Under the pieces are notes generated by a model. That model ran no database searches, was not told the origin of the DNA, and saw nothing but the letters and a program-made list of their open reading frames with translations. This document shows, piece after piece, positions 1 to 47,512 of a stretch of 64,000 bases of DNA. Made by a program: the position numbers and the translations under genes. This DNA comes from an uncultured Planctomycetales bacterium (lineage in GTDB: Bacteria > Omnitrophota > Gorgyraeia > Zapsychrales > Zapsychraceae): assembly GCA_964364455.1 (NCBI GenBank), contig CAYIMR010000003.1, positions 23-64,022 of the forward strand, read 5' to 3'. The stretch's first letter is position 1. Every line of letters starts with the position of its first letter.

Positions 1-1
1 C

Positions 2-178
2 GATCCCGCCGAACGCGCCAAACTGCGCGCCGAGCTCGACGGCCTCATCGCGCATCTTTACGGCCTGACCGAGAACGAGTTCACGCATATTCTTAAAACT
101 TTCCCGCTCGTCCCCGAACCGGTCCGAGCCGCCGCGCTCGATGCCTACCGCGATGTCGGGAAGGGAAAGGTCAAGTGA
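2..178 (+). CDS. 3' end (window-truncated) of a restriction-modification-type protein, probably the C-terminus of a type IIG/methylase-subunit-like enzyme
   Basis: Open frame from the window edge to TGA at 176-178. It translates to DPAERAKLRAELDGLIAHLYGLTENEFTHILKTFPLVPEP..., and the LYGLTExEFxHIL..FP tail is one I recall from C-termini of type II RM methylase-subunit proteins. It is not in the ORF track because it has no start. Confidence 0.4.
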   Translation, partial: DPAERAKLRAELDGLIAHLYGLTENEFTHILKTFPLVPEPVRAAALDAYRDVGKGKVK

Positions 179-216
179 TCGCCTTGTTGAGAGGTCTATA
201 AAAAGGATTGGTTCAA

Positions 217-1332
217 ATGAATGGGCAATGGATGGGGCAATATATTGGATCAAACTCCGGCTCGATCATCGTCAATCTCGATGATATGGGGGAACATTAT
301 GAAGGTGTCGCCTTTCTACTCGATACAAATAGTCAATTGCCGGTCACTGTAGCTATGTTAAAAACAAGTGATAAGGCGAGGACATTTCAATTCAAGACGC
401 CGGCGATTCTTTCAATAAATCCTCGCACTTCGTTCATTGATACTTGGGACAACGTTAAGCAATTTTTTCCCCAGATGTTTTTTCCGAAAGAAGCAAAAGT
501 GCGTGGGGAGTGGAATGAAAGCGAATTGATATTTAGCTGCTCAACAGATATTGGAACGACAGCTTCTGCTACGCTTCCAAAAAGTAAAGCTGATAAACCG
601 TCTGAACAGGTGCCGTTGACTTTAGACTGGAATGGTTGCAAAGTGCATTTTTCTAAATTAGCAGGATCCAGGAGATATCTATTTCGTGGTCAAAATGAAC
701 CACGACGGCTTCGCACAAAATTCCATAGATCGGGGAGGGCCGATTTAGGTAGATTTCTCAATGAGGATATGCAGACTTTGCATAAACATCTCAGCGGCAG
801 AACCCGACATATATTTAATTTGAATATACCCGATGAAAATGGTGCTTTTTTCAATTTAGTTCAGCATCATGGTTACCCGACTCCGTTGCTTGATTGGACA
901 TGCTCTCCATATGTGGCTGCGTATTTTGCGTATCGTGGGATTTCTAATGCAGATGCAGCGAAGGCGCCAAATGATAAAAGAGTACGAATCATTGTATTTG
1001 ATCAAGAGCAATGGCGGAAAGATTTTCCTCAGCCATTAGTACTTAATTCAGCTTTTCCGTATTTTTCAATTATGGAATCCCTTGCGATTGACAATGCGAG
1101 GATGATTCCGCAACAGGCAGCTTCAAGTGTGACTAATATTGATGATATAGAAAGTTACATAAAGTCTAAAGAGAATGCGGAAAAAAAGTATCTGCATGCT
1201 ATCGATTTACCTATGAAAGATCGAACAGAGGTGATATGTGAATTGAGTTATATGGGTATTACTGCAGGGTCACTGTTCCCAGGGCTGGATGGCGCGTGCG
1301 AAGAATTAAAAGAACGTTTCTTTAAGATTTAA
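217..1332 (+). CDS. FRG domain-containing protein with an unrecognised N-terminal domain of about 150 aa
   Basis: YLFRGQNEPRRLRTKFHR ... LVQHHGYPTPLLDWTCSPYVAAYFAY matches the FRG-domain signature (FRG motif plus HyG.PT.LLDWT.SP..A.YFA). ATG 217 lies 10 nt after AAAAGGA. The track start at 208 is TTG. Confidence 0.75.
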   Translation: MNGQWMGQYIGSNSGSIIVNLDDMGEHYEGVAFLLDTNSQLPVTVAMLKTSDKARTFQFKTPAILSINPRTSFIDTWDNVKQFFPQMFFPKEAKVRGEWNESELIFSCSTDIGTTASATLPKSKADKPSEQVPLTLDWNGCKVHFSKLAGSRRYLFRGQNEPRRLRTKFHRSGRADLGRFLNEDMQTLHKHLSGRTRHIFNLNIPDENGAFFNLVQHHGYPTPLLDWTCSPYVAAYFAYRGISNADAAKAPNDKRVRIIVFDQEQWRKDFPQPLVLNSAFPYFSIMESLAIDNARMIPQQAASSVTNIDDIESYIKSKENAEKKYLHAIDLPMKDRTEVICELSYMGITAGSLFPGLDGACEELKERFFKI

Positions 1333-1335
1333 AGA

Positions 1336-1416
1336 AAATCAACGACGAATCAACGTACCAAGCCTGCATGCAGGCCTTTTTGACGCCTGCTCGCCAACGT
1401 TCGCGGCGCGACCGCG
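1336..1416. repeat. Intergenic module A, copy 1, directly after the stop codon and including a small GC hairpin plus T-run
   Basis: Shares AATCAACGT, the palindrome GCCTGCATGCAGGC followed by TTTTTGA, and an exact 17-mer AACGTTCGCGGCGCGAC (1396-1412 = 4001-4017) with copy 2. Confidence 0.8.
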
Positions 1417-1453
1417 TTCTTTCCTGACATGCTTTTGGTGGAAGAGCTTGTCG

Positions 1454-1514
1454 GGGGACAGGTTGAAGGCCGCGGAGGTCACAGGGCGGGACGACAGAGG
1501 GACACAATACTTAA
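1454..1514. repeat. GGGGACAGG box, then a degenerate module B, then the 16-mer GGGACACAATACTTAA
   Basis: GGGGACAGGTTGA (1454-1466) is identical to 5122-5134. GTCACAGGGCGGGACGACAG resembles module B. The 16-mer at 1499-1514 is the exact reverse complement of 44075-44090. Confidence 0.8.
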
Positions 1515-1530
1515 GTGATAGAAGGAAACA

Positions 1531-2184
1531 ATGGAAATTGAAGAGAAAATCAGGAAACGATTTGAAGAATTGTTAAAAGTAGGTGACAAATTAAAGCACG
1601 GAAATGAGAGTGACCAAGTGCAAAACGAAGCGCATCGACAGGAGTGCATTGGCTGGCTTGCGTCGGCTCAAAATATTGTGCATTTGGTGGTAGCTAATCT
1701 TGGTAATCCTTATCGATTATCAGTAGATAAGATATGTAATGCTGACCGCGGATACTGCATTCAAAGGTCTGTTGGTGAAGTCGCTGTGATTTTGAGGTCA
1801 TTGCTTTATGATGTCGACTCAGGTTTGCTGGCTTCTATTGAGGATCAAACTAAAGCTTCCGTCTTCGATGATTTTTTAGATCATGCGAAAGAATATGCAA
1901 AACAAAAATTGTCAAAAGAGGCTGGTGTGATAGCCGGTGTCGTATTCGAGGACACCTTACGGAGTATTTGTCGTGCCAAGGGCATAGCCGAAAAAGACAG
2001 GAAACTGGATTCTTTGATTGACGATCTTGTTAAGGCAGGTGTATTGAGCCAGGTAAAAGCAAAAAGAGCGAAAGTTGCGGCCCATGTCCGCACAAAAGCA
2101 ACACATGCCCAATGGGACGAATTTGATTTAGGAGATGTCAATACGACGATTGATTTTACGGAAGACTTGATCCTTAATATCTAG
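1531..2184 (+). CDS. Hypothetical helical protein with a HEPN-like (DUF4145/Abi-like) C-terminus
   Basis: RBS GAAGGAAAC precedes the ATG. The C-terminal ...LIDDLVKAGVLSQVKAKRAKVAAHVRTKATHAQWDEF carries an R-x4-H motif in the context typical of HEPN/DUF4145 domains. No other family was recognised. Confidence 0.4.
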   Translation: MEIEEKIRKRFEELLKVGDKLKHGNESDQVQNEAHRQECIGWLASAQNIVHLVVANLGNPYRLSVDKICNADRGYCIQRSVGEVAVILRSLLYDVDSGLLASIEDQTKASVFDDFLDHAKEYAKQKLSKEAGVIAGVVFEDTLRSICRAKGIAEKDRKLDSLIDDLVKAGVLSQVKAKRAKVAAHVRTKATHAQWDEFDLGDVNTTIDFTEDLILNI

Positions 2185-2203
2185 AGAGAACAGAGAAGAA
2201 CAG

Positions 2204-2268
2204 GTGACAGTCACCCGTACCCCGTACGGGGACAGGCACTTTTGAAGGGGACAGGGTGAAGGTTGGGG
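2204..2268. repeat. Intergenic module B copy 1, followed by a GGGGACAGG box
   Basis: GACAGTCACCCG (2206-2217) equals 3583-3594. GGGGACAGGCA (2228-2238) equals 3598-3608. CTTTTGAAGGGGACAGG (2239-2255) equals 5114-5130. Contains the palindromes GTGACAGTCAC and CCCCGTACGGGG. Confidence 0.8.
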
Positions 2269-2356
2269 AAATCAAAAAATCCACCGCCGAGCTTAAAGAG
2301 GGAGTCGTTTCTATTGCGGCTACGCTCAATAAACATGGCCGGAGAGAGATGATAAA

Positions 2357-3511
2357 ATGAAAGCGCAAATAAAATCTGTTAAAAGAAATGCTTTCGACGA
2401 TGCAGTGTTATTTAGAGAAATTCGCGAGTTAATTCTTTCAGCGAGAAAAGCTGTCGTCAGAAATATTGATGCCATTCAGGTGATTACGAGTTTTGAAATT
2501 GGCCGCAGAATTGTGAAACATGAACAAAAAGGCTCTGCCCGCGCTCAATACGGGAAACAACTTCTTGTTGATCTTTCAACGCATTTAACTAACGAATTCG
2601 GGAGAGGGTTTTCCCGCTCAAATTTGGAATATATGCGTAAGTTTTATTTAGCATATCATGATCGTTCCGGGCAGATTCGGCAGATGGCGTCTGCCAAATA
2701 TAAAGACACCTCTGTCTCTGAAATTTCCCAGATGCCATCTGGGAAATCTACCGTAGCGCTTAAATCCCAGATACGTTCTGGGAAATCAATCAAGCCAGCA
2801 TTTTGTTTAAGCTGGTCTCAATATGTTTTTCTCACCGGAATTAAAGACGAAGACGCGCGCAGTTTTTACGAAATAGAAGCGGCAAGCAATAATTGGACTT
2901 TACCGGAACTTACCCGTCAGTTCAATTCAGGGCTGTATGAACGTTTGGCGTTAAGCCGGGATAAAGAAGGCGTACGAAAACTGGCAAAAGAAGGTCAGAT
3001 TATTTCTAAACAAGAGGACTTGCTTAAGGAGCCGTATGTATTGGAGTTCCTCGGGCTTGATGAAAATGCCAAGTATTCAGAATCTGATTTAGAGTCCGCC
3101 ATTATTGACAAGCTTGAACATTTTCTCCTTGAACTTGGTAAAGGATTCTTGTTTGAAGCGCGCCAGAAGAGATTTACATTTGATGAGGATCATTTTTTTG
3201 TAGATTTGGTTTTTTATAATCGTTTGATCGGGTGTTATGTTCTTATTGATTTAAAGATCGGGAAACTAACGCATCAGGACTTGGGGCAAATGCAAATGTA
3301 TGTGAATTATTTTGACCGCTATGTGAAAACAAAAGAGGAAGGCTCGACCGTTGGCATTATCCTTTGCCGTAAGAAGCGTGAAGCTCTGGTCAAAATCACG
3401 CTTCCCAAAGACGCGAATATCCATGCTAAAGAATACCGCCTGTACCTGCCGTCAAAAGAAGAATTAAGACGTAAGCTTCTCGACTGGACTAAAGACCGGG
3501 ATGTTTCTTAG
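2357..3511 (+). CDS. DUF1016/YhcG-family PD-(D/E)xK nuclease domain protein, paralog 1
   Basis: N-terminal ...FEIGRRIVKHEQKGSARAQYGKQLLVDLSTHL..FGRGFSRSNLEYMRKFYLAY and C-terminal ...FFVDLVFYNRLIGCYVLIDLKIGKLTHQDLGQMQMYVNYF are the hallmark YhcG/DUF1016 blocks (D...ELK nuclease core). Confidence 0.8.
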   Translation: MKAQIKSVKRNAFDDAVLFREIRELILSARKAVVRNIDAIQVITSFEIGRRIVKHEQKGSARAQYGKQLLVDLSTHLTNEFGRGFSRSNLEYMRKFYLAYHDRSGQIRQMASAKYKDTSVSEISQMPSGKSTVALKSQIRSGKSIKPAFCLSWSQYVFLTGIKDEDARSFYEIEAASNNWTLPELTRQFNSGLYERLALSRDKEGVRKLAKEGQIISKQEDLLKEPYVLEFLGLDENAKYSESDLESAIIDKLEHFLLELGKGFLFEARQKRFTFDEDHFFVDLVFYNRLIGCYVLIDLKIGKLTHQDLGQMQMYVNYFDRYVKTKEEGSTVGIILCRKKREALVKITLPKDANIHAKEYRLYLPSKEELRRKLLDWTKDRDVS

Positions 3512-3580
3512 CTTTTAAATAAAAAAGAAGAATATGCTCAAAGGATCCGAAACAATCGAGTTCAAGACAAAGGAATGAAG

Positions 3581-3608
3581 GCGACAGTCACCCGGGCGGG
3601 GACAGGCA
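3581..3608. repeat. Intergenic module B copy 2
   Basis: Exact 12-mer and 11-mer matches to 2206-2217 and 2228-2238. It lies immediately upstream of the truncated DUF1016 fragment. Confidence 0.8.
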
Positions 3609-3650
3609 TGGTGAGCTTCGCCGCTCGCCTCGTTTCACGGGCGAAGCGGG

Positions 3651-3938
3651 TTGGCGGTTGAACTTAAAATAGGTGATTTTAAGCCGGAATATGCGGGGAA
3701 AATGCAGTTTTATCTTTCCGCGCTCAATGAGCGGGATAAGCTTGAAGGAGAAAATCCGGCTATCGGTATTATAATTTGTAGAAGTAAAAGCCGGACCGTG
3801 GTTGAATACGCGTTAAAGGATGTGCACAAGCCCATAGGGGTTTCTATCTATTCTATTAAAAAGTCTTTGCCCAAAGCATTGCAAAAATATCTGCCGTCAT
3901 CAAAGGAACTGGCGGAAAGACTGGACGCGGTGAAATGA
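3651..3938 (+). pseudogene. 5'-truncated DUF1016/YhcG remnant (only the last ~95 codons remain)
   Basis: VELKIGDFKPEYAGKMQFYLSALNE..ENPAIGIIICRSKSRTVVEYAL aligns with the C-terminal third of paralog 3 (FELKIDDFKPEYLGKLNFYLEALDR..ENPSVGIILCKSKNDEVVEYAL). No N-terminal portion, no ATG and no RBS. Confidence 0.7.
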
Positions 3939-4021
3939 AATCAGCGAAATCAACGTGCCAGGCCTGCCTGCCGGCAGGCGCTTTTGAACACCTGCTCACT
4001 AACGTTCGCGGCGCGACGGTG
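3938..4021. repeat. Intergenic module A, copy 2
   Basis: AATCAACGTGCC (3948-3959) equals 5090-5101. Hairpin GCCTGCC-TGCC-GGCAGGC followed by CTTTTGA. The 17-mer at 4001-4017 equals 1396-1412. Confidence 0.8.
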
Positions 4022-4063
4022 ATTTGAATAATAAGCCGAAAGGAGAGAATAAGAGGTGATTGA

Positions 4064-5077
4064 ATGAAGATTATTAAACCGCTTGATAATCAGTTCGGGG
4101 AAGTCGTTCATTTAATTAAAAAAGCCCGTCTTAACGCGTTGCGAAGTGTTAATCAGGAATTGATTGAGCTTTACCGGCAAATCGGAAGTTATATCAGTGC
4201 AAGAGTCGAATGCGAAGAATGGGGGAAGGGGGTTGTGACTCAGCTGGCTGTGCATCTACGGGAAAGGCTCCCGGATTCAACAGGCTATTCCTCGCAAAAT
4301 CTCTGGCGTATGAAGCAGTTTTATGAGGTATACCGCAAATATCCAAAACTCTCAACACTGTTGAGAGAATTAGGCTGGTCCAGCCACCTGCATATTGTCT
4401 CTAAAACAAAAACTATCGAAGAAAAAGAATTTTATCTCCGGCTTGCCATTAAGGAAAGATATTCCGTCCGCGAACTGGAGCGCCAGATTGACAGCGGTTT
4501 ATTTGAACGCGTTGTGCTTTCCAGAAAGAAAGTTCCGGCATCGCTGACACAAAAGCATCCTGAAGCGCCGGAAGTATTCAAGGATGTCTATGTCCTTGAT
4601 TTTCTTAACCTGCCTGAAGTTCACAGCGAGACCGGCTTGCGAAGGAGCATTGTTTCTAACCTGAAGAATTTTATTCTTGAATTCGGCAAAGACTTTGCAT
4701 TTGTTGGCCAGGAACACCGGCTTCAAGTCGGTAAAAACGATTATTTCATCGACCTTCTGTTTTTTCACCGCGGCTTACGCTGTCTTGTTATGTTTGAGTT
4801 GAAGATAGACGATTTCAAACCCGAGTATCTGGGCAAGTTGAATTTTTATCTCGAGGCTTTAGACAGGGATGTAAGAAAACCGGATGAGAATCCGAGCGTT
4901 GGAATCATCCTCTGCAAATCAAAAAACGATGAAGTGGTGGAGTATGCCTTAAGCCGCAATCTTTCGCCCGCGCTTGTTGCCGAGTACAAGACAAAGCTTA
5001 TTCCCAAGAAGATATTGCAGAAAAAGCTGCATGAGTATTACCTGTTGGGCGAAAGCGGGGCAAGGAAGGAAAAATAA
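4064..5077 (+). CDS. DUF1016/YhcG-family PD-(D/E)xK nuclease domain protein, paralog 3
   Basis: GSYISARVECEEWGKGVVTQLAVHLRERLPDSTGYSSQNLWRMKQFY ... YFIDLLFFHRGLRCLVMFELKIDDFKPEYLGKLNFYL. RBS GAGGTGA lies upstream of the ATG. Confidence 0.8.
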   Translation: MKIIKPLDNQFGEVVHLIKKARLNALRSVNQELIELYRQIGSYISARVECEEWGKGVVTQLAVHLRERLPDSTGYSSQNLWRMKQFYEVYRKYPKLSTLLRELGWSSHLHIVSKTKTIEEKEFYLRLAIKERYSVRELERQIDSGLFERVVLSRKKVPASLTQKHPEAPEVFKDVYVLDFLNLPEVHSETGLRRSIVSNLKNFILEFGKDFAFVGQEHRLQVGKNDYFIDLLFFHRGLRCLVMFELKIDDFKPEYLGKLNFYLEALDRDVRKPDENPSVGIILCKSKNDEVVEYALSRNLSPALVAEYKTKLIPKKILQKKLHEYYLLGESGARKEK

Positions 5078-5150
5078 AAATCAACGAAAAATCAACGTGC
5101 CGGGCACTTTTGACTTTTGAAGGGGACAGGTTGAGGGCGAGGGGTTGGGA
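5077..5150. repeat. Module A copy 3 (short form) fused to a GGGGACAGG box
   Basis: AAAATCAACGAAAAATCAACGTGCC, then hairpin GTGCC-G-GGCAC with T-run, then CTTTTGAAGGGGACAGGTTGAGGGC. Exact matches to 3948-3959, 2239-2255 and 1454-1466. Confidence 0.8.
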
Positions 5151-5245
5151 AGTGGAATTTGAAGAAGCTAAAGGACGAAGGGCTTATGAAACGCATTGGC
5201 CCGGACAAAGGCGGGCATTGGGAGGCTTAGGTTTTTTGCAAGGCA

Positions 5246-7348
5246 ATGAAAATCTTACAAGTTTTACCTGAACTCAACGTCGGCGGCGTGGAAACCGGGA
5301 CGGTCGATCTGGCCAGGTATCTGGCCGCCCACGGCCATCAATCCGTCGTTGTGTCCAACGGCGGCGAATTGGTCAGTGATCTGGAAGCCGCAGGGACGCG
5401 ACATTACACGTTGCCCGTCCACAAAAAGTCGTTATGGTTGATGATAAAATGTGTCAAGGCGTTACGCGCGATCATTCAAAGTGAAAAAGCGGATATCGTG
5501 CACGCCCGCTCCCGGGTGCCGGCCTGGATCGCCTATTTTGCCTGCCGCGGGACGCAAGCCGCGTTTATCACAACTTGTCACGGGTATTATGGCAATCGTA
5601 TTTTTAGCCAGGTGATGGGCTGGCCCAAGTTGGTCATCGTGCCCAGCCGGGTCATCGGGCGGCACATGATGGAACATTTCGGCACTTTGTCCAATAGCAT
5701 CCGTTATATTCCCCGCAGTGTGGATGTGGAAAAGTTCCGGGTGCAGCGTCCGGTCATTGAGGGAAAATCGTTTTTTACCGTTACGATCGTGGGGCGGCTG
5801 ACGCCCTTGAAGGGTCATACGTTCTTTTTACGCGCGATGGCAAAGGTGGTGCGCGCGATGCCCAATATCCGCGTTTGGATCATCGGGGACGCGCCGGCGG
5901 CCAAACAATCGTACAAGGCCGAACTGCAAGTCCTCACCCATCGTCTGGGGATCCAGGAACATGTTGAATTTTTAGGGAATCGCAAAGACGTTCCGCAACT
6001 CTTGGCCCAAACGGATGTGCTTGTCCTTTCCACGGTGACCCAGGAAGCTTTTGGGAGGGTGATTCTGGAAGCCCAGGCCGCAGGCGTTCCGGTGGTTGCC
6101 ACCAGTGTTGGCGGTGTCGTTGATATCATCGATGACGGGCACACGGGTTTATTGGTAATGCCTAAAGATCCGGATGGCATGGCCAAAGCTGTGATGCGCG
6201 TTCTGGGCGATAAAAAGTTTGCCGCCCAGTTGGCCGGCGCGGCGCGGCAAAAATTGCAGGAAAACTTCACTCTGGGACATATGGCGTCCCAAACGTTAAA
6301 AGTTTACGAGGAATTGCTCAATTCCCTGAATATCCTGGCCATCAAGATCAGCGCGGCGGGAGATGTGGTTTTGGTAACGGCATCATTGAAAGCGTTGCGG
6401 GAAAAATATCCGCGGGCGAAGATCTATTGCCTTGTCGGAAGAGAATCGCGCAAGATATTGCAGAGCTGCCCCTATCTGGATGGGCTTGTTGTCGATGACA
6501 CGCGGCAGAAAAGCAAAGGATGGATCAATGCGATACGCTTGTCGCATCGGCTGCGCAAATACCGTTTTGACAAGATCGTCGATTTTCAAAACAGCCGTAA
6601 AAGCCACCTGCTGGCGTTTTTAAGCTTCCCTCGGGAAAGCTACGGGTACGACAACGGAAAATGGAGTGGACTGCTGACGAATCCGTTAAAACAATATCGT
6701 AATGATATCCCGGCGGTCGACCATCAATTTCAGTTATTGCAAACGATGGGAATAACCACTCCGAAAGAATTGGCTTTGGAGCTTTGGCCTTCTGAGAAGG
6801 ACCGTAAATATGCCCAAGAGCTCCTCGACGCGGAATGGCTGGGCAACGTGACCCGGATCGTTGGCATCAACATCGCCGCTTCGCAAAAATGGCAGACGAA
6901 GAATTGGCCCATGGAATATATCGCGCGTTTATGCGACCTGCTTTCCGGCAAAAGTGTCCGCGTGCTCATCACCGGAATGGAGAAGGATAAACCTTTGGTC
7001 GAAGCGCTTCTGGCGCAGACGAGGTCCAAACCCGCTATTTTCGTGGGGCGTACCGATATCTTGCAATTGGCCGCGCTCATTGAACGCTGTAAAGTTTATA
7101 TCACGCCGGACTCGGCGCCGTTGCATGTCGCCGCGGCCATGCGCACCCCGCTGGTCGCGTTCTTTGGCCCGACGGATTCCCGGAGGCACCAGCCGCCGGC
7201 TAAAAATATGATCATCCTGGAAAAGAAACCCGCTTGCGCGCCCTGTTACAGTCCGCGGTGCCTGATCATGACGCACGTGTGCATGCGCGACATAACCCCC
7301 GAGGAAGTCGCCGGCAAGGTTGAGCTGTTGATGGATACAAAACAATGA
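5246..7348 (+). CDS. Fusion protein: GT4 glycosyltransferase (N-terminal ~355 aa) plus GT9 heptosyltransferase-like domain (C-terminal)
   Basis: N-terminus: MKILQVLPELNVGGVETGTVDLARYL...EAFGRVILEAQAAGVPVVATSVGG (GT4 EX7E region). C-terminus: ILAIKISAAGDVVLVTASLKALREKYP...DSAPLHVAAAM (GT9/RfaF-like). Confidence 0.75.
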   Translation: MKILQVLPELNVGGVETGTVDLARYLAAHGHQSVVVSNGGELVSDLEAAGTRHYTLPVHKKSLWLMIKCVKALRAIIQSEKADIVHARSRVPAWIAYFACRGTQAAFITTCHGYYGNRIFSQVMGWPKLVIVPSRVIGRHMMEHFGTLSNSIRYIPRSVDVEKFRVQRPVIEGKSFFTVTIVGRLTPLKGHTFFLRAMAKVVRAMPNIRVWIIGDAPAAKQSYKAELQVLTHRLGIQEHVEFLGNRKDVPQLLAQTDVLVLSTVTQEAFGRVILEAQAAGVPVVATSVGGVVDIIDDGHTGLLVMPKDPDGMAKAVMRVLGDKKFAAQLAGAARQKLQENFTLGHMASQTLKVYEELLNSLNILAIKISAAGDVVLVTASLKALREKYPRAKIYCLVGRESRKILQSCPYLDGLVVDDTRQKSKGWINAIRLSHRLRKYRFDKIVDFQNSRKSHLLAFLSFPRESYGYDNGKWSGLLTNPLKQYRNDIPAVDHQFQLLQTMGITTPKELALELWPSEKDRKYAQELLDAEWLGNVTRIVGINIAASQKWQTKNWPMEYIARLCDLLSGKSVRVLITGMEKDKPLVEALLAQTRSKPAIFVGRTDILQLAALIERCKVYITPDSAPLHVAAAMRTPLVAFFGPTDSRRHQPPAKNMIILEKKPACAPCYSPRCLIMTHVCMRDITPEEVAGKVELLMDTKQ

Positions 7349-44685: not shown

Positions 44686-44783
44686 ATTTTCTATCAAGGC
44701 CCTATGGTACGTGCGCCAGCGCCAGACGTTTGCCAGACGTTTGCCGGATTGCCTTTTGGGAGTTAACCTGTTAATATAAAGAA

Positions 44784-45125
44784 ATGAAAATTATAACAAA
44801 AACGTTGTCCCTGGATGAACTCAAAGAAATGGCTGCCGCGACATTTGGTGATATGGTCAAGGCCGTTGTCGACATCGAGCGGGGCATTTTTGCGGTTGAC
44901 GCTGAACTGCATTCTGATCTGGAGGCCGCGCTACTGCAGGACGGCTCAAAACAGAGAAATTTGTGGGGCATTAACCTTTATCCGGAAACTCCCGATGAGG
45001 ATTTTATCGAATTTGATTCCATGATCAACGTCCGTCCTTCACAAGGCAACCGAAGCCGGGGGGTTGAAGACGAAGGCCTGCGCGCAAGAATTCTGGAAAT
45101 TGTCAACCAAAGGGTGCCCAGATGA
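44784..45125 (+). CDS. Small conserved protein of unknown function, resembling DUF5674 as I recall it
   Basis: ...FGDMVKAVVDIERGIFAVDAELHSDLEAALLQDGSKQRNLWGINLYPE...FIEFDSMINVRPSQGNRSRGVEDEGLRARI. The family assignment is from memory and needs an HMM check. Confidence 0.55.
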   Translation: MKIITKTLSLDELKEMAAATFGDMVKAVVDIERGIFAVDAELHSDLEAALLQDGSKQRNLWGINLYPETPDEDFIEFDSMINVRPSQGNRSRGVEDEGLRARILEIVNQRVPR

Positions 45126-45448
45126 TCGTCCAGCATAAAAAGCTTGCCGCCGGCCGGTGGGAAGAATTCCGGCTTATTGAGCAAATGGCCCATGTCGGAA
45201 GCGAGGTGGAGAGGGCATTGAACTGGAAAGCGAAGAATAACCTTGAACGGTCGGCCAAAGCCTTCGACCGCGCGCTCGAACTATTGGACTTGACCCTTGA
45301 CTGTCCCCGCAACCGGCCGCGCCTTAAAGAGATCGCCAGGGCGCGGGAAGTTTGTGTGGACTTTTTTCAGGGTGAGAATCAATTTGCCTCTTCCGGGGAT
45401 TCCCTGCGAAAATATTTTCTGCAATTCGCCTGCGCCGCGCGCCGATAG
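45122..45448 (+). CDS. Small all-helical hypothetical protein, translationally coupled to the preceding gene
   Basis: ATGA overlap at 45122-45125. ...RWEEFRLIEQMAHVGSEVERALNWKAKNN...AFDRALELLDLTL... No family confidently recognised. Confidence 0.5.
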   Translation: MIVQHKKLAAGRWEEFRLIEQMAHVGSEVERALNWKAKNNLERSAKAFDRALELLDLTLDCPRNRPRLKEIARAREVCVDFFQGENQFASSGDSLRKYFLQFACAARR

Positions 45449-45491
45449 ACTCCCTCAGGGAGGCAGAAATCAGATTCCCGCGTAAACGCGG

Positions 45492-45530
45492 GAATTCAAA
45501 TTGTGCGGAAACGCACGAATTCAAAAAGCG
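45492..45530. repeat. Direct repeat copy a (GAATTCAAATTGTGCGGAA ... CACGAATTCAAAAAGCG)
   Basis: The exact 19-mer 45492-45510 equals 46268-46286. The exact 17-mer 45514-45530 equals 46290-46306. Confidence 0.9.
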
Positions 45531-45549
45531 TCCGCGAAATAACCTCGGC

Positions 45550-45578
45550 TTGACAAATCGTGCGGCGTCATTTAAGCT
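45550..45578 (+). promoter_or_regulatory. Sigma70-like promoter upstream of the ORF6N gene
   Basis: TTGACA (45550-45555), a 17-nt spacer, then TAAGCT (45573-45578). Confidence 0.45.
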
Positions 45579-45635
45579 TTAGGCAATAATCCGTCCCCCT
45601 ATCGATTCTCCATAAAATTGAAAGGGGGATTTTTT

Positions 45636-46166
45636 ATGTCCAGCGACGGTACGCTGCAACACATCATTGAAAGCAAGATTTTCCTGTTCAGAGGAGAAAA
45701 GGTAATGCTTGATAAGGACCTGGCCGCGCTTTATCAAGTCAGGCCGATCGCTTTGCGCCAGCAAGTGGCGCGCAACAAGGAGCGTTTCCCTGACGATTTC
45801 ATGTTTCGGCTCAATGACGATGAGGTCACAGAGCTGGTATCACAAAATGTGATACCCTCCAAAAGCACCCTGGGAGGCCATAACCCGTATGTCTTTACCG
45901 AACAGGGTGTGGCCATGCTCTCCAGTGTTTTGCGCAGCCCCCGGGCGGTTTTGGTAAACGTCCAGATCATGCGGACGTTCGTCAAGCTCCGCAAGATCCT
46001 GGCAAGCCACAAAGAGCTGGCCCGCAAGCTGGAAGAGCTTGAAAAGAAATATGACGTCCAGTTCAGGGCCGTGTTTGATGCGATCCGGCGGCTGATGAAG
46101 GAAGAGGAAAAACCCAAAGCGCCCTTTGGATTCCACTCGCAAAGACCCCGCCAACTTACGCCTTGA
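45636..46166 (+). CDS. ORF6N (KilA-N-related) domain DNA-binding protein
   Basis: IFLFRGEKVMLDKDLAALYQVRPIALRQQVARNKERFPDDFMFRLNDDEV...NPYVFTEQGVAMLSSVLRSPRAVLVNVQIMRTFVKLR matches the ORF6N domain pattern. ATG 45636 follows AAGGGGGA (track start 45618 is TTG). Confidence 0.8.
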   Translation: MSSDGTLQHIIESKIFLFRGEKVMLDKDLAALYQVRPIALRQQVARNKERFPDDFMFRLNDDEVTELVSQNVIPSKSTLGGHNPYVFTEQGVAMLSSVLRSPRAVLVNVQIMRTFVKLRKILASHKELARKLEELEKKYDVQFRAVFDAIRRLMKEEEKPKAPFGFHSQRPRQLTP

Positions 46167-46241
46167 CCTTTCGCGCGAAATTCCCTACTATTGTCTTATC
46201 CGCGCCGGCGAACGAGCGTTCAGAATTTTGTCCCGGGACGA

Positions 46242-46324
46242 GAATTCAAATTGTTGCGGAACGGCAAGAATTCAAATTGTGCGGAATATCACGAATTCAA
46301 AAAGCGGCCAAGTGGCCGCAATTG
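46242..46324. repeat. Direct repeat copies b and c, plus the GCCGCAATTG tail
   Basis: GAATTCAAATTGTTGCGGAACGGC (46242-46265) resembles 46585-46609. The stretches 46268-46306 duplicate 45492-45530. GCCGCAATTG at 46315-46324 equals 46616-46625. Confidence 0.9.
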
Positions 46325-46332
46325 CGATGAAT

Positions 46333-46421
46333 ATGAATAGGAGGCGTTACTATGAATAGGAGGCGTTACTGGTGGTGCCGGGCTAGGTTTAGTGCAGCGT
46401 GGCACTGGCAGTAACGCCTCC
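46333..46421 (+). repeat. Tandem 19-bp duplication (ATGAATAGGAGGCGTTACT x2), followed by a 13-bp-stem hairpin
   Basis: Units at 46333-46351 and 46352-46370. GGAGGCGTTACTG (46359-46371) pairs with CAGTAACGCCTCC (46409-46421). There is an inner stem GGTGCC/GGCACT. Confidence 0.85.
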
Positions 46422-46584
46422 GTAAAACCCCAAAAATAAATGGGAGGGGGATGAATCACGCTTTTTTAATTTGCTACCTAGCAGTTCTGCTTTTAGGAGG
46501 CATTGGGAATTGAGGAGTTTTAAGTTGTGAGCAGTGACCATGGCAACACTGGGTGTTACTGCGCGTCATTTCTGACACGCGTCA

Positions 46585-46625
46585 GAAATTCAAATTCTTG
46601 CGGAACGGCCACATAGCCGCAATTG
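46585..46625. repeat. Direct repeat copy d, abutting the AT-rich orphan gene
   Basis: GAAATTCAAATTCTTGCGGAACGGC...GCCGCAATTG. It is preceded by the 9-bp hairpin ATTTCTGAC-ACGC-GTCAGAAAT (46568-46589). Confidence 0.85.
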
Positions 46626-46673
46626 GGAACCAGAAAAAACCTGTCCTCATTACGACAAAAAGAGTTGAGCAAT

Positions 46674-47462
46674 ATGGTTAAAATAACGGTAGATAACAAT
46701 TTTTTTAACACTGAGTTATTGACAAATCCAAGACCACTAGGAGATTTTGATAATGATAGGATATCATTTTATCCTTCCTTCGAATTAATAGGCGAATTTT
46801 TGTCTATGTATGGGACACAAAAGGGGAACGAAAGATTGCGGAGATATTCAGAAATATTTCTTCAAATGAACCCCAAGCGCATTATAAATTCTTGGCGAGA
46901 TTTATTGTTGAATCAACTAGGAATTCAACAAAGTCAACTTTATGTGGATGAGAGATTAGAAGATTCCTTGCGCCAGATTTTGCATAAATTAGCGCAAAGT
47001 CAAAGTCTTAATATAGAAGAAGAGGATTCCATTGTTAAAATTAAAGAAAGGGTGAATTCTGGAAAGAAGACAATGGGAATTAGGTATGAGGAGGCAAAAA
47101 GTTTATATAAAATACAAAATAATTATCGAGACTTCGAAGATTTCTACAGCAGAAGAGGAGATGTTATACAAAAAGCTATTATTAAGAAAATATTCCAAGA
47201 CAATCAGGTCCCTATTAATGATTCGAGTATCATCGAAATAATTAACGCTTTGGACACTAAACCTTATTTGAATTTATATTCCAGGATCTATTCAGCCTTT
47301 GTGTTTTACCACTATATAACAAATCAAAATAATCAAAAAATCGATGGTAATGATTTTTATGACCACCTCTACCTTATTTATCTTGTTGATGTTGATTACC
47401 TGATAACATATGAACGCAGGTTAAAAACATTGGCTGAATTAGTTTTCCCCGGGGAAAACTAA
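46674..47462 (+). CDS. Orphan hypothetical protein in a strongly AT-rich segment
   Basis: Long ORF with N/I/K/Y-rich composition. I counted 18 G+C in the 60 nt starting at 46681, against 34 in the 60 nt starting at 48121. Start is ATG 46674, or TTG 46623. The C-terminal ...GNDFYDHLYLIYLVDVDYLITYERRLKTLAE is only faintly PIN-like. Confidence 0.55.
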   Translation: MVKITVDNNFFNTELLTNPRPLGDFDNDRISFYPSFELIGEFLSMYGTQKGNERLRRYSEIFLQMNPKRIINSWRDLLLNQLGIQQSQLYVDERLEDSLRQILHKLAQSQSLNIEEEDSIVKIKERVNSGKKTMGIRYEEAKSLYKIQNNYRDFEDFYSRRGDVIQKAIIKKIFQDNQVPINDSSIIEIINALDTKPYLNLYSRIYSAFVFYHYITNQNNQKIDGNDFYDHLYLIYLVDVDYLITYERRLKTLAELVFPGEN

Positions 47463-47483
47463 GTAGGAAAAATAACCTTTGAA

Positions 47484-47512
47484 GTTGAATAAGCGCGGGG
47501 TTTGGGTTATGA
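47484..47512 (+). promoter_or_regulatory. Sigma70-like promoter for the fchA-like/folD operon
   Basis: TTGAAT, a 17-nt spacer (AAGCGCGGGGTTTGGGT), then TATGAT, read from the sequence at about 47484-47512. Confidence 0.45.

Follow-up and report, generated by a model that had tools for sequence, protein, structure and literature searches.

A cassette-like defense island with a shared intergenic linker family in a groundwater Candidatus Omnitrophota genome

The window analyzed here is a 64,000-nucleotide (nt) stretch of contig CAYIMR010000003.1, and its source is a groundwater Candidatus Omnitrophota genome. Bases 178-5245 form the right-hand portion of an island of accessory genes, the left part of which lies beyond the window start. 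Five spacers separate and follow these genes, and all five are versions of one intergenic linker that recurs beside unrelated genes in other genomes. The locus is described here as a cassette-like defense island held together by a lineage-specific linker family. An earlier note had read the locus as a recombining gene-cassette array. That reading, in a non-integron form, is supported by sequence comparison: linkers lie beside unrelated cargo elsewhere, relatives have empty sites, and the neighbors of a cassette are polymorphic.

The linker is composed of several parts in one order, as seen in the alignment of the five co-oriented spacers. Short tandem repeats at the stop codon are followed by a GC hairpin, (C)TTTTGA, an optional 70-nt block, the 9-mer GGGGACAGG, and a right arm. 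The tandem repeats are AATCAACG in A-type linkers and GAACAG or AATGAAGG in B-type linkers, and usually begin 0-3 nt past the stop. The hairpin is followed by a short T run and is terminator-like. The 70-nt block has the consensus ACRCCTG...GAGCTTGYC and is exactly 70 nt long in five copies, with zero indels. The right arm of ~30 nt, NTGAAGGYCGCGRAGGYCACAGGGCG, opens with ATG, GTG, or TTG. Altogether, 13 linker copies from six sources (the window, L007, L062, L063, L068, and L077) align to this layout.

Within the window, GGGGACAGG occurs five times, on the plus strand only and always within bases 1-5245; 0.31 occurrences are expected per 64 kb, and the other 58.7 kb has none. AATCAACGTRCC is found in the 64 kb at 1348, 3948, and 5090 only, and the 17-mer at 1396-1412 exactly matches that at 4001-4017. 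Across 87 nt, linkers 1 and 4 (1331-1412 and 3933-4017) are 78% identical (E-value 2e-10). B-type linkers share GACAGTCACCCG (2206 and 3583 only) and GGGGACAGGCA (2228 and 3598). GGGGACAGGKTGA occurs only at 1454, 2247, and 5122, with 0.08 expected and three matches reached in 0 of 100 shuffles; bases 2238-2255 equal 5113-5130. The earlier note had divided these repeats into modules A and B and a box. Its exact matches and coordinates are all present and unique to this region of the window, but the three are not separate, being parts of one layout in all five spacers.

The individual linkers are listed in Table 1. The tail (70-nt block) of linker 1 is 83-91% identical to the L007, L062, and L063 copies, and the linker 1 hairpin is the only one that passes a terminator scan. 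In linker 2, the GTG at 2256 opens a 34-codon open reading frame (ORF) that ends as an ATGA overlap on the start of DUF1016-a (2357). Linker 3 is 97% identical to L063 at 3574-3608, and 85% identical at 3575-3627 to L007 5821-5873, which continues into the C-terminal part of HsdS, a fragment of 41 codons with 89% identity to the end of the intact hsdS gene in L063. The tail of linker 4 is truncated to its first 30 nt (3988-4017), of which 30 of 30 are identical to L063 and 27 of 30 to linker 1. An hsdS gene has left its last ~36 nt at 4023-4063, carried in with DUF1016-b, and 4023-5079 is 84% identical to L074, whose first ~36 nt there are the end of a Methylase_S gene. Linker 5 contains a possible C-terminal gene remnant (5162-5230), followed by ~15 nt before the glycosyltransferase start.

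Six-frame peptides of the linkers gave 0 matches at E-value ≤0.01 against 5.8 billion proteins, so the linker is not a recognizable gene fragment. ARAGORN also gave no match. Pieces of spacers 2, 3, and 5 (SETIEFK, GEIKKSTAELKEG..., and ...GPDKGGHWEA) were considered as AlbA_2-type remnants. Neither Pfam nor BLAST against AlbA_2-fused methyltransferases confirmed this, and they are treated as possible remnants only. The triplet after GGGGACAGG at window positions 1463, 2256, 3608, and 5131, and in L062, L063, L068, and L077, is ATG, GTG, or TTG (CATG in B-type linkers). It is always a start codon because the base that follows the 9-mer is A, G, or T.

Linkers from different sources are 81-98% identical, beside unrelated genes and at other chromosomal sites. 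In BLASTN of the window against L007, the island genes have no similarity and the linkers match at 84-90%, compared with ~72% identity for the core genes of the two genomes. A 27-nt pattern taken from the 70-nt block, run against a metagenome collection, returned two further contigs, L062 and L063. The insert in L062 (5839-7552, minus strand) lies between ftsI and murE, in an otherwise standard cell-division (dcw) cluster. It consists of one DUF1016 cassette, flanked on either side by linkers, plus a Bro-N N-terminal stump; its DUF1016 protein is 34% identical to copy b of the window. In L063, the order is an hsdS end, an AbiU2-like gene, a composite linker of B-type plus tail, and a RhuM-like gene (assigned by eye, no Pfam scan). 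L077, reached via a 95% homolog of DUF1016-b, has three linkers with 3, 5, and ~8 TCAACG units, a number that ranges from 2 to ~8 across linker copies. L077 also has two copies of a ~50-nt palindromic element, TTTCCGGGGACACGTACCTAATAGATCGGTACATGTCCCCGGAA, at 1515-1565 and 1971-2020. One interrupts a DUF559-like gene fragment, and the arms of the element contain GGGGACA, like the linker core.

In the DNA searched, linkers are confined to islands. The profile elements for the linker are the head, the hairpin, and CTTTTGAAGGGGACAGG. Profile searches of the remaining 58.7 kb of the window, and of core DNA from seven relatives, returned no linker beyond the island segments; the core DNA searched was that of L005-L012 and the flanks of L007 and L062. 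Inside islands, the density is ~1 copy per kb, with all copies co-oriented. Among viral contigs, the B pattern had no match, and the 17-mer had 49 matches, all of them chance matches of ≤25 nt. The linkers appear to be one lineage-specific, strand-specific family whose GC content matches that of the host. As for the modules of the earlier note, they are not confined to the locus and recur in L007, L062, L063, L068, and L077. Linker copies in the window align at 78-92%, and some copies are closer between contigs than inside the window. Local segmental duplication is excluded because of this and because linkers are 81-98% identical across sources, compared with 29-48% for the DUF1016 sequences that they flank.

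The insertion site of the island is a spacer of 12-20 nt between an lpxL-like gene (an lpxL-like/ELM1-like acyltransferase fusion) and a GT4-GT9 glycosyltransferase gene. In four relatives (L005, L006, L008, and L009), the site is empty: the lpxL-like gene lies directly upstream of the glycosyltransferase, 12-20 nt away, with no island. Linker sequence is absent from these four empty sites, and comparison with those of L005 and L006 places the right island boundary. Protein identity of the glycosyltransferase to that of the window is 93% in L005, 88% in L006, 77% in L008, 76% in L007, and 71% in L009. A fetch of glycosyltransferase orthologs from reference genomes gave eight matches, all eight from Candidatus Omnitrophota.

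L007 has an 8.1 kb island in the identical spacer, and its gene set is entirely different from that of the window. This cargo is made up of an AAA_14/DUF4143 ATPase, a nucleotidyltransferase and partner gene, a DUF4238 gene, a 671-residue TPR protein, a Bro-N protein, and a Bro-N fragment. The spacer is a recurrent insertion hotspot because four relatives are empty there and L007 is filled by a different island. Variable defense-type genes lie between the same two core genes, relatives are empty, and composition is atypical, as in other hotspots. In both lineages, the island sits in precisely this spacer and has GTTTGCAAGSCA at its end. Identity between the window and L007 is not locally raised anywhere in the flanking gene; their core genes are ~72% identical. 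Fixed gene order, which would speak for ordinary spacers, is not seen in homologous loci; instead, there are four empty sites, one different island, and one cassette with a different neighbor.

That last case is L068, from another metagenome. DUF1016-a and its 5' leader are 99.8% identical there from window base 2233 rightwards, and the upstream neighbor is different. Left of the breakpoint, L068 carries an A-type head and a fragment of an unassigned gene, PIN-like by eye and without a Pfam match; the window has the DUF4145-like gene and a B-type hairpin. Homology starts inside the linker, at AGGCACTTTTGAAGGGGACAGG. Over 1301 nt, the two are 99.85% identical with ~2 differences, one of which is the base right after the 9-mer.

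Pieces of contig identical to the window are also present in Hainich groundwater metagenomes. In two Hainich samples, the contig with the methyltransferase, FRG, and DUF4145-like genes has coverage of 60 and 42, against 92 and 70 for the contigs on its right (i.e., a ratio of ~60-65%), all values being those in the contig names and not from read mapping. The break between the left and right segments is at 2257-2311. This suggests that a sizeable minority of the Hainich population has something else left of linker 2. Independently assembled contig ends from several samples cluster in the spacers, at window positions 1459-1469, 2257-2311, 3479-3567, and 3944. Repeated linkers, or linkers polymorphic in the population, would be expected to produce such clustering.

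Counting all copies, GGGGACAGG has three left contexts and at least seven right contexts, in several combinations. The right-hand sequences diverge from the common arm after 1, 4, 5, 8, 15, or ~35 nt, with no single fixed junction. In L007, the AAA_14/DUF4143 ATPase gene is bracketed by a 63-nt direct repeat that is 97% identical between its copies (1867-1929 and 3174-3236), both of which contain the hairpin GCCCCACGGGTTAACACCCGTGGCCCC. The core lpxL-like gene ends within the left copy, which covers its last 13 nt, and the right copy supplies the final eight codons and stop of the ATPase gene. Gene stumps are found at junctions, i.e., hsdS 3' ends, the DUF1016 C-terminal fragment, Bro-N N-terminal stumps (L062 and L007), and the 5' end of an SNF2-PLD helicase gene. 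The first codons of the latter are kept at L007:4545-4580; in other organisms, that gene pairs with the methyltransferase family of the window. So many gene fragments suggest that recombination was imprecise, and speak against precise cassette excision.

Clusters of attC sites lacking integrase are known as CALIN (PMC4889954). The island resembles a chromosomal integron or a CALIN in that its cargo is co-oriented, AT-richer, mostly of single genes, and variable in content and order between strains, with each gene followed by a conserved repeat of ~50-190 nt. The repeats are also far more conserved than the genes, and no integrase lies nearby, as in a CALIN. Unlike an integron, the linker is not an imperfect palindrome with pairing ends. 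The earlier note raised the idea of an attC-like bottom-strand structure, which is not borne out: single-stranded DNA folds of the five linkers on both strands have z-scores of +0.13 to -2.1, no better than shuffled sequence. Linker ends are unpaired in these folds, only a small internal hairpin forms, and the repeats before the hairpin are direct, not inverted. The (A)ATCAAC repeats and GTTGAAG share complementary TCAAC/GTTGA, loosely like the integron core sites RYYYAAC and GTTRRRY. However, ATCAAC is present as 2 to ~8 direct repeats, and two boxes read GGTGAAG and one GATGAAG, which breaks the conserved GTT triplet. Precise cassette boundaries are also not observed, since gene fragments are present and right-hand junctions lie at variable depth.

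No recombinase or integrase was found in the complete 8.1 kb L007 island, the flanks of the L062 insert, or the 14 kb downstream in the window genome, which agrees with the earlier note that none is visible. Three other candidates were dropped. There is no TTATG-type XerD arm as in dif or pdif sites. Chi sites and DNA-uptake sequences would be genome-wide. A nearby xerC, as the responsible enzyme, is in the same place in relatives with empty sites.

The explanation favored here, put at about an even chance of being right, is that the array was built by general recombination between linkers and not by an integrase acting on attC. The most likely process is duplicative insertion, deletion, and shuffling via inter-linker recombination. 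On this view, bases 178-5245 are the right part of an accessory defense and restriction-modification (R-M) island, located in a hotspot of groundwater Omnitrophota and made up of foreign, AT-rich, single-gene cargo units. Linkers would serve as homology that travels with each cassette, or as duplicated targets, because every cassette carries the same linker. Recombination of two direct copies would delete or excise the segment between them. Recombination of a resident linker with one on incoming or excised DNA would insert a segment with a linker copy on each side. The chimeric A/B linkers and the gene stumps could come from crossovers at varying depth combined with illegitimate joins at hairpins. 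The putative pathway is a general one, RecA-type or replication-slippage recombination, and the terminator role of the hairpin is likewise putative.

Several observations weigh against general recombination between linkers. At 25-150 nt and 80-95% identity, linkers are poor substrates for RecA. In ~8 of 12 cases, the linker starts ≤3 nt from the stop of an unrelated gene, whereas the 5' sides are ragged, an asymmetry not expected from random recombination. GGGGACAGG never varies, keeps strictly to one orientation, and has a hairpin ahead of it in each of the three left contexts, a combination that looks like a recognition site. The indel-free 70-nt block suggests some function. Occupation of the same spacer by two islands that end in GTTTGCAAGSCA, with flank identity not raised, does not appear to be what flank-mediated homologous transfer would yield. 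Finally, a recombinase might lie upstream of the window, the scan having covered L007, L062, and the downstream 14 kb.

These observations bring in a doubtful but specific alternative, a new site-specific or hairpin-directed cassette system. A trans-acting enzyme (a tyrosine or serine recombinase or an HUH/Y1 nuclease) would recognize the hairpin and GGGGACAGG and cut beside the 9-mer, and so, tentatively, swap single defense genes past the stop codons of tight operons (lpxL/GT and ftsI/murE). The 9-mer is invariant and present on one strand only, and a hairpin precedes it in all three left contexts, which are found in free combination with several right contexts. Just one position is hypervariable within otherwise identical sequence, namely the base that follows the 9-mer (A, G, or T). 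The filling of one spacer in two lineages without raised flank identity and the loose likeness of ATCAAC repeats and GTTGAAG to RYYYAAC and GTTRRRY also favor an enzyme. Opposed to it are the recombinase searches described above, the lack of an attC-like fold on either strand, right-hand junctions at different depths, the GGTG and GATG boxes in place of GTTG, and frequent gene stumps, which precise excision does not leave. In a more speculative variant, the recurrent DUF1016 PD-(D/E)XK nuclease itself makes the breaks.

An unlikely alternative holds that linkers are conserved as functional RNA or expression signals, with recombination as a by-product. The signals would be a terminator, a structured RNA in the 70-nt block, and a Shine-Dalgarno sequence with its leader ORF. 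The plus-strand RNA fold of linker 1 has a z-score of -3.6, and hairpin pairing is kept although hairpin sequence differs between copies. The fixed length of the 70-nt block fits as well, as do the start codon (NTG) after every 9-mer and the short ORF that ends -23 to +45 nt from the next gene start in seven of nine copies. GGGGACAGG with NTG may therefore serve as a Shine-Dalgarno sequence and leader ORF for translational coupling. However, five tail copies show 0 compensatory changes in 27 predicted pairs and an unfavorable covariation term, a comparison of low power at 81-93% identity. Bases 1-5400 have no Rfam match at E-values up to 5, T runs are short, one hairpin passes the terminator scan, and an expression role alone does not explain the island-only distribution. 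Such a role is compatible with inter-linker recombination and not exclusive of it.

Linkers could instead be small non-autonomous mobile elements ("mobile terminators") that insert after stop codons and do not mobilize the genes, akin to miniature inverted-repeat transposable elements (MITE), repetitive extragenic palindromic (REP) sequences, or bacterial interspersed mosaic elements (BIME). Mosaic make-up, long and short forms set apart cleanly by the 70-nt block, position directly past stops, the variable number of TCAACG units, and the additional palindromic repeat in L077 are in keeping with such elements. This is a rather improbable account given that the searches of 58.7 kb of the window and of core DNA from seven relatives found no copy, all copies have a single orientation, and neither terminal inverted repeats nor target-site duplications surround the 70-nt block. 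It also leaves unexplained a 99.8% identical cassette with different neighbors. Far less probable is an origin as ordinary operon spacers, alike through local segmental duplication or because an old operon was inherited vertically. Distant homology does link the three DUF1016 sequences, and the genes are co-oriented. Against this, the flanked genes are 29-48% identical and linkers 78-92% in the window and 81-98% across sources, and linker 4 is closer to L063 than to linker 1. Linkers also flank FRG, DUF4145-like, AbiU2-like, Bro-N, PIN-like (by eye; no Pfam match), and RhuM-like (by eye) genes and occur at other chromosomal sites, and relatives have empty sites.

Table 1. Genes and linkers at the right-hand end of the island and its flank (window coordinates; E, E-value; aa, amino acids).
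Feature	Position	Strand	Description
Methyltransferase 3' end	1..178	+	Last 58 codons of Eco57I/MmeI-type DNA methyltransferase (~1140 aa); left-most visible island gene
FRG-domain gene	217..1332	+	PF08867, E 2e-18; PADLOC PDC-S15, E 1.5e-36; GC 0.41
Linker 1, long form	1333..1530	+	Between FRG and DUF4145-like genes
Linker 1, left side			AATCAACG repeats 1335-1359; hairpin 1362-1375; CTTTTTGA 1376-1383; 70-nt tail 1383-1452
Linker 1, right side			Core GGGGACAGG 1454-1462; common right arm TTGAAGGCCGCGGAGGTCACAGGGCGGG 1463-1490
DUF4145-like (HEPN-like) gene	1531..2184	+	PF13643, E 1.3e-4; weak, 22.4 bits vs cut-off 23.1; GC 0.42
Linker 2, B-type	2185..2356	+	Between DUF4145-like gene and DUF1016-a
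Linker 2, left side			GAACAG repeats 2185-2203; palindrome GGTGACAGTCACC 2203-2215; hairpin 2214-2230, running into GGGGACAGG 2228-2236
Linker 2, right side			CACTTTTGAA 2237-2246; second GGGGACAGG 2247-2255; GTG at 2256
DUF1016/YhcG gene a	2357..3511	+	PF17761 and PF06250; PDC-S02
Linker 3, B-type	3512..3650	+	GGCGACAGTCACCCGGGCGGGGACAGGCA 3580-3608; from 3608, remnant of hsdS 3' end
DUF1016 C-terminal fragment	3651..3938	+	95 aa; PF06250 profile positions 75-157 only
Linker 4	3939..4063	+	AATCAGCG/AATCAACG repeats 3939-3959; hairpin 3962-3979; GCTTTTGAAC 3980-3989
DUF1016/YhcG gene b	4064..5077	+	Pfam; PDC-S02
Linker 5, short form, right island end	5078..5245	+	AATCAACG repeats 5078-5101; hairpin GTGCCGGGCAC 5097-5107
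Linker 5, right side			TTTTGACTTTTGAA 5108-5121; GGGGACAGG 5122-5130; shortened right arm 5131-5144
GT4-GT9 fusion glycosyltransferase	5246..7348	+	Pfam; first core lipopolysaccharide (LPS) gene, opens long LPS cluster; right flank of hotspot, outside island

The cargo agrees with the earlier description of five co-oriented, AT-richer genes between the end of an R-M-like gene and the LPS cluster. GC content is 0.41-0.44 in island genes, 0.50-0.55 in spacers, ~0.52 in the rest of the window, and 0.52-0.54 in the surrounding genome. The assignment of a HEPN-like gene stands as a DUF4145-like match, but one that scores below the cut-off (Table 1). Two of the three DUF1016 copies are complete, and the third is only a C-terminal fragment. 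DUF1016-a and b share 29% amino acid identity, and the fragment and b share 48%. Repeats inside DUF1016-a (2670-2790) form a direct and inverted set, with TCCCAGATGCCATCTGGGAAATC present twice, and coincide with an extra ~40 residues relative to the DUF1016_N profile.

The methyltransferase gene is cut off in every contig, and L001 (L001:3-2366) extends it 2188 nt upstream. The FRG gene starts 38 nt past the methyltransferase stop, with no linker between them. Homologs of the methyltransferase (PF07669 and PF20473, ~1140 aa) are 65-83% identical across many phyla, and some family members are fused to an AlbA_2 (PF04326) domain. In L070-L073, the homologs are paired with a gene for a 1125-residue SNF2-PLD helicase and a DUF6933 gene. 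The closest full-length homolog, P0001, is from another organism, without linkers.

Close homologs of DUF1016-b in other organisms are located inside compact type I R-M operons, in the order hsdS-DUF1016-hsdM. Homologs that are 80-88% identical lie between hsdS and hsdM in L074:712-4574, L076:245-4076, and L078:2-3814. The gaps around the gene are 1-4 nt in L074 and L076; in L078, it overlaps hsdS, and hsdM is 136 nt further. In L075, the homolog and an hsdS stump adjoin dapF, so the gene also moves outside linker arrays. None of the 80-88% homologs (L074, L075, L076, and L078) has linkers, and only the 95% homolog in L077 does. A second AT-richer stretch with small genes lies at 44700-47500 of the window (GC 0.44 at 46-48 kb). 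It includes an ORF at 45618-46166 that is ORF6N/KilA-N-like by eye only, and a 279-residue ORF with no assigned function. Linker sequences are absent from this stretch.

BIME, REP, and ERIC (enterobacterial repetitive intergenic consensus) sequences are mosaic intergenic repeats of enterobacteria, present in tens to hundreds of copies chromosome-wide and in both orientations. Linkers are similar in being intergenic, transcribed, hairpin-containing mosaics of interchangeable motifs, with short and long variants that differ by an internal block and often lie just past stop codons inside operons. They differ in their density of ~1 per kb inside islands, their absence from the core DNA searched, and their single orientation. 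Defense-island hotspots are defined by flanking genes or by a carrier element, e.g., a prophage, satellite, or integrative conjugative element, and an internal linker is not part of the description. The present island shares with them variable defense-type genes between conserved core genes, empty sites in close relatives, and foreign-looking GC content, but differs in the linker common to its individual defense genes.

Orphan cassette arrays downstream of Rhs and contact-dependent inhibition (CDI) toxin genes grow by serial displacement, and a short conserved stretch of the coding sequence of the main toxin gene serves as homology. Here too, units keep a short conserved stretch of homology and fragments of displaced genes accumulate, but the stretch is a non-coding linker. 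R-M genes can also be inserted "with long target duplication" and no mobility gene, as described by Furuta, Abe, and Kobayashi in 2010 (PMC2853133). In an example from H. influenzae, 46-bp direct repeats overlap the 3' end of the upstream gene (PMC2853133). The island is like these insertions in having R-M-linked genes between core genes, no integrase or transposase, and direct repeats of >30 bp (63 nt in L007; 87 nt at 78% identity for window linkers 1 and 4). In those insertions, the repeat duplicates a sequence that is single-copy in the empty-site genome. The linkers are, in contrast, a family found across cassettes and genomes and absent from empty sites. A literature search on integrons in Omnitrophota found no description of such linkers.

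Defense islands are usually portrayed as loose assemblages of genes at hotspots. How single defense genes enter and leave islands without a visible mobile element is an open question. The linker sequence is a practical probe for such arrays in metagenomes, as the 27-nt pattern that yielded two more illustrates. A shared portable linker offers a concrete, testable route for the gene-by-gene exchange of defense functions in an uncultivated, small-genome phylum. Should the linker prove to be the substrate of an enzyme, the array would represent a second cassette system besides integrons and independent of them. Without such an enzyme, it would show how closely ordinary recombination between short shared spacers can imitate a cassette system.

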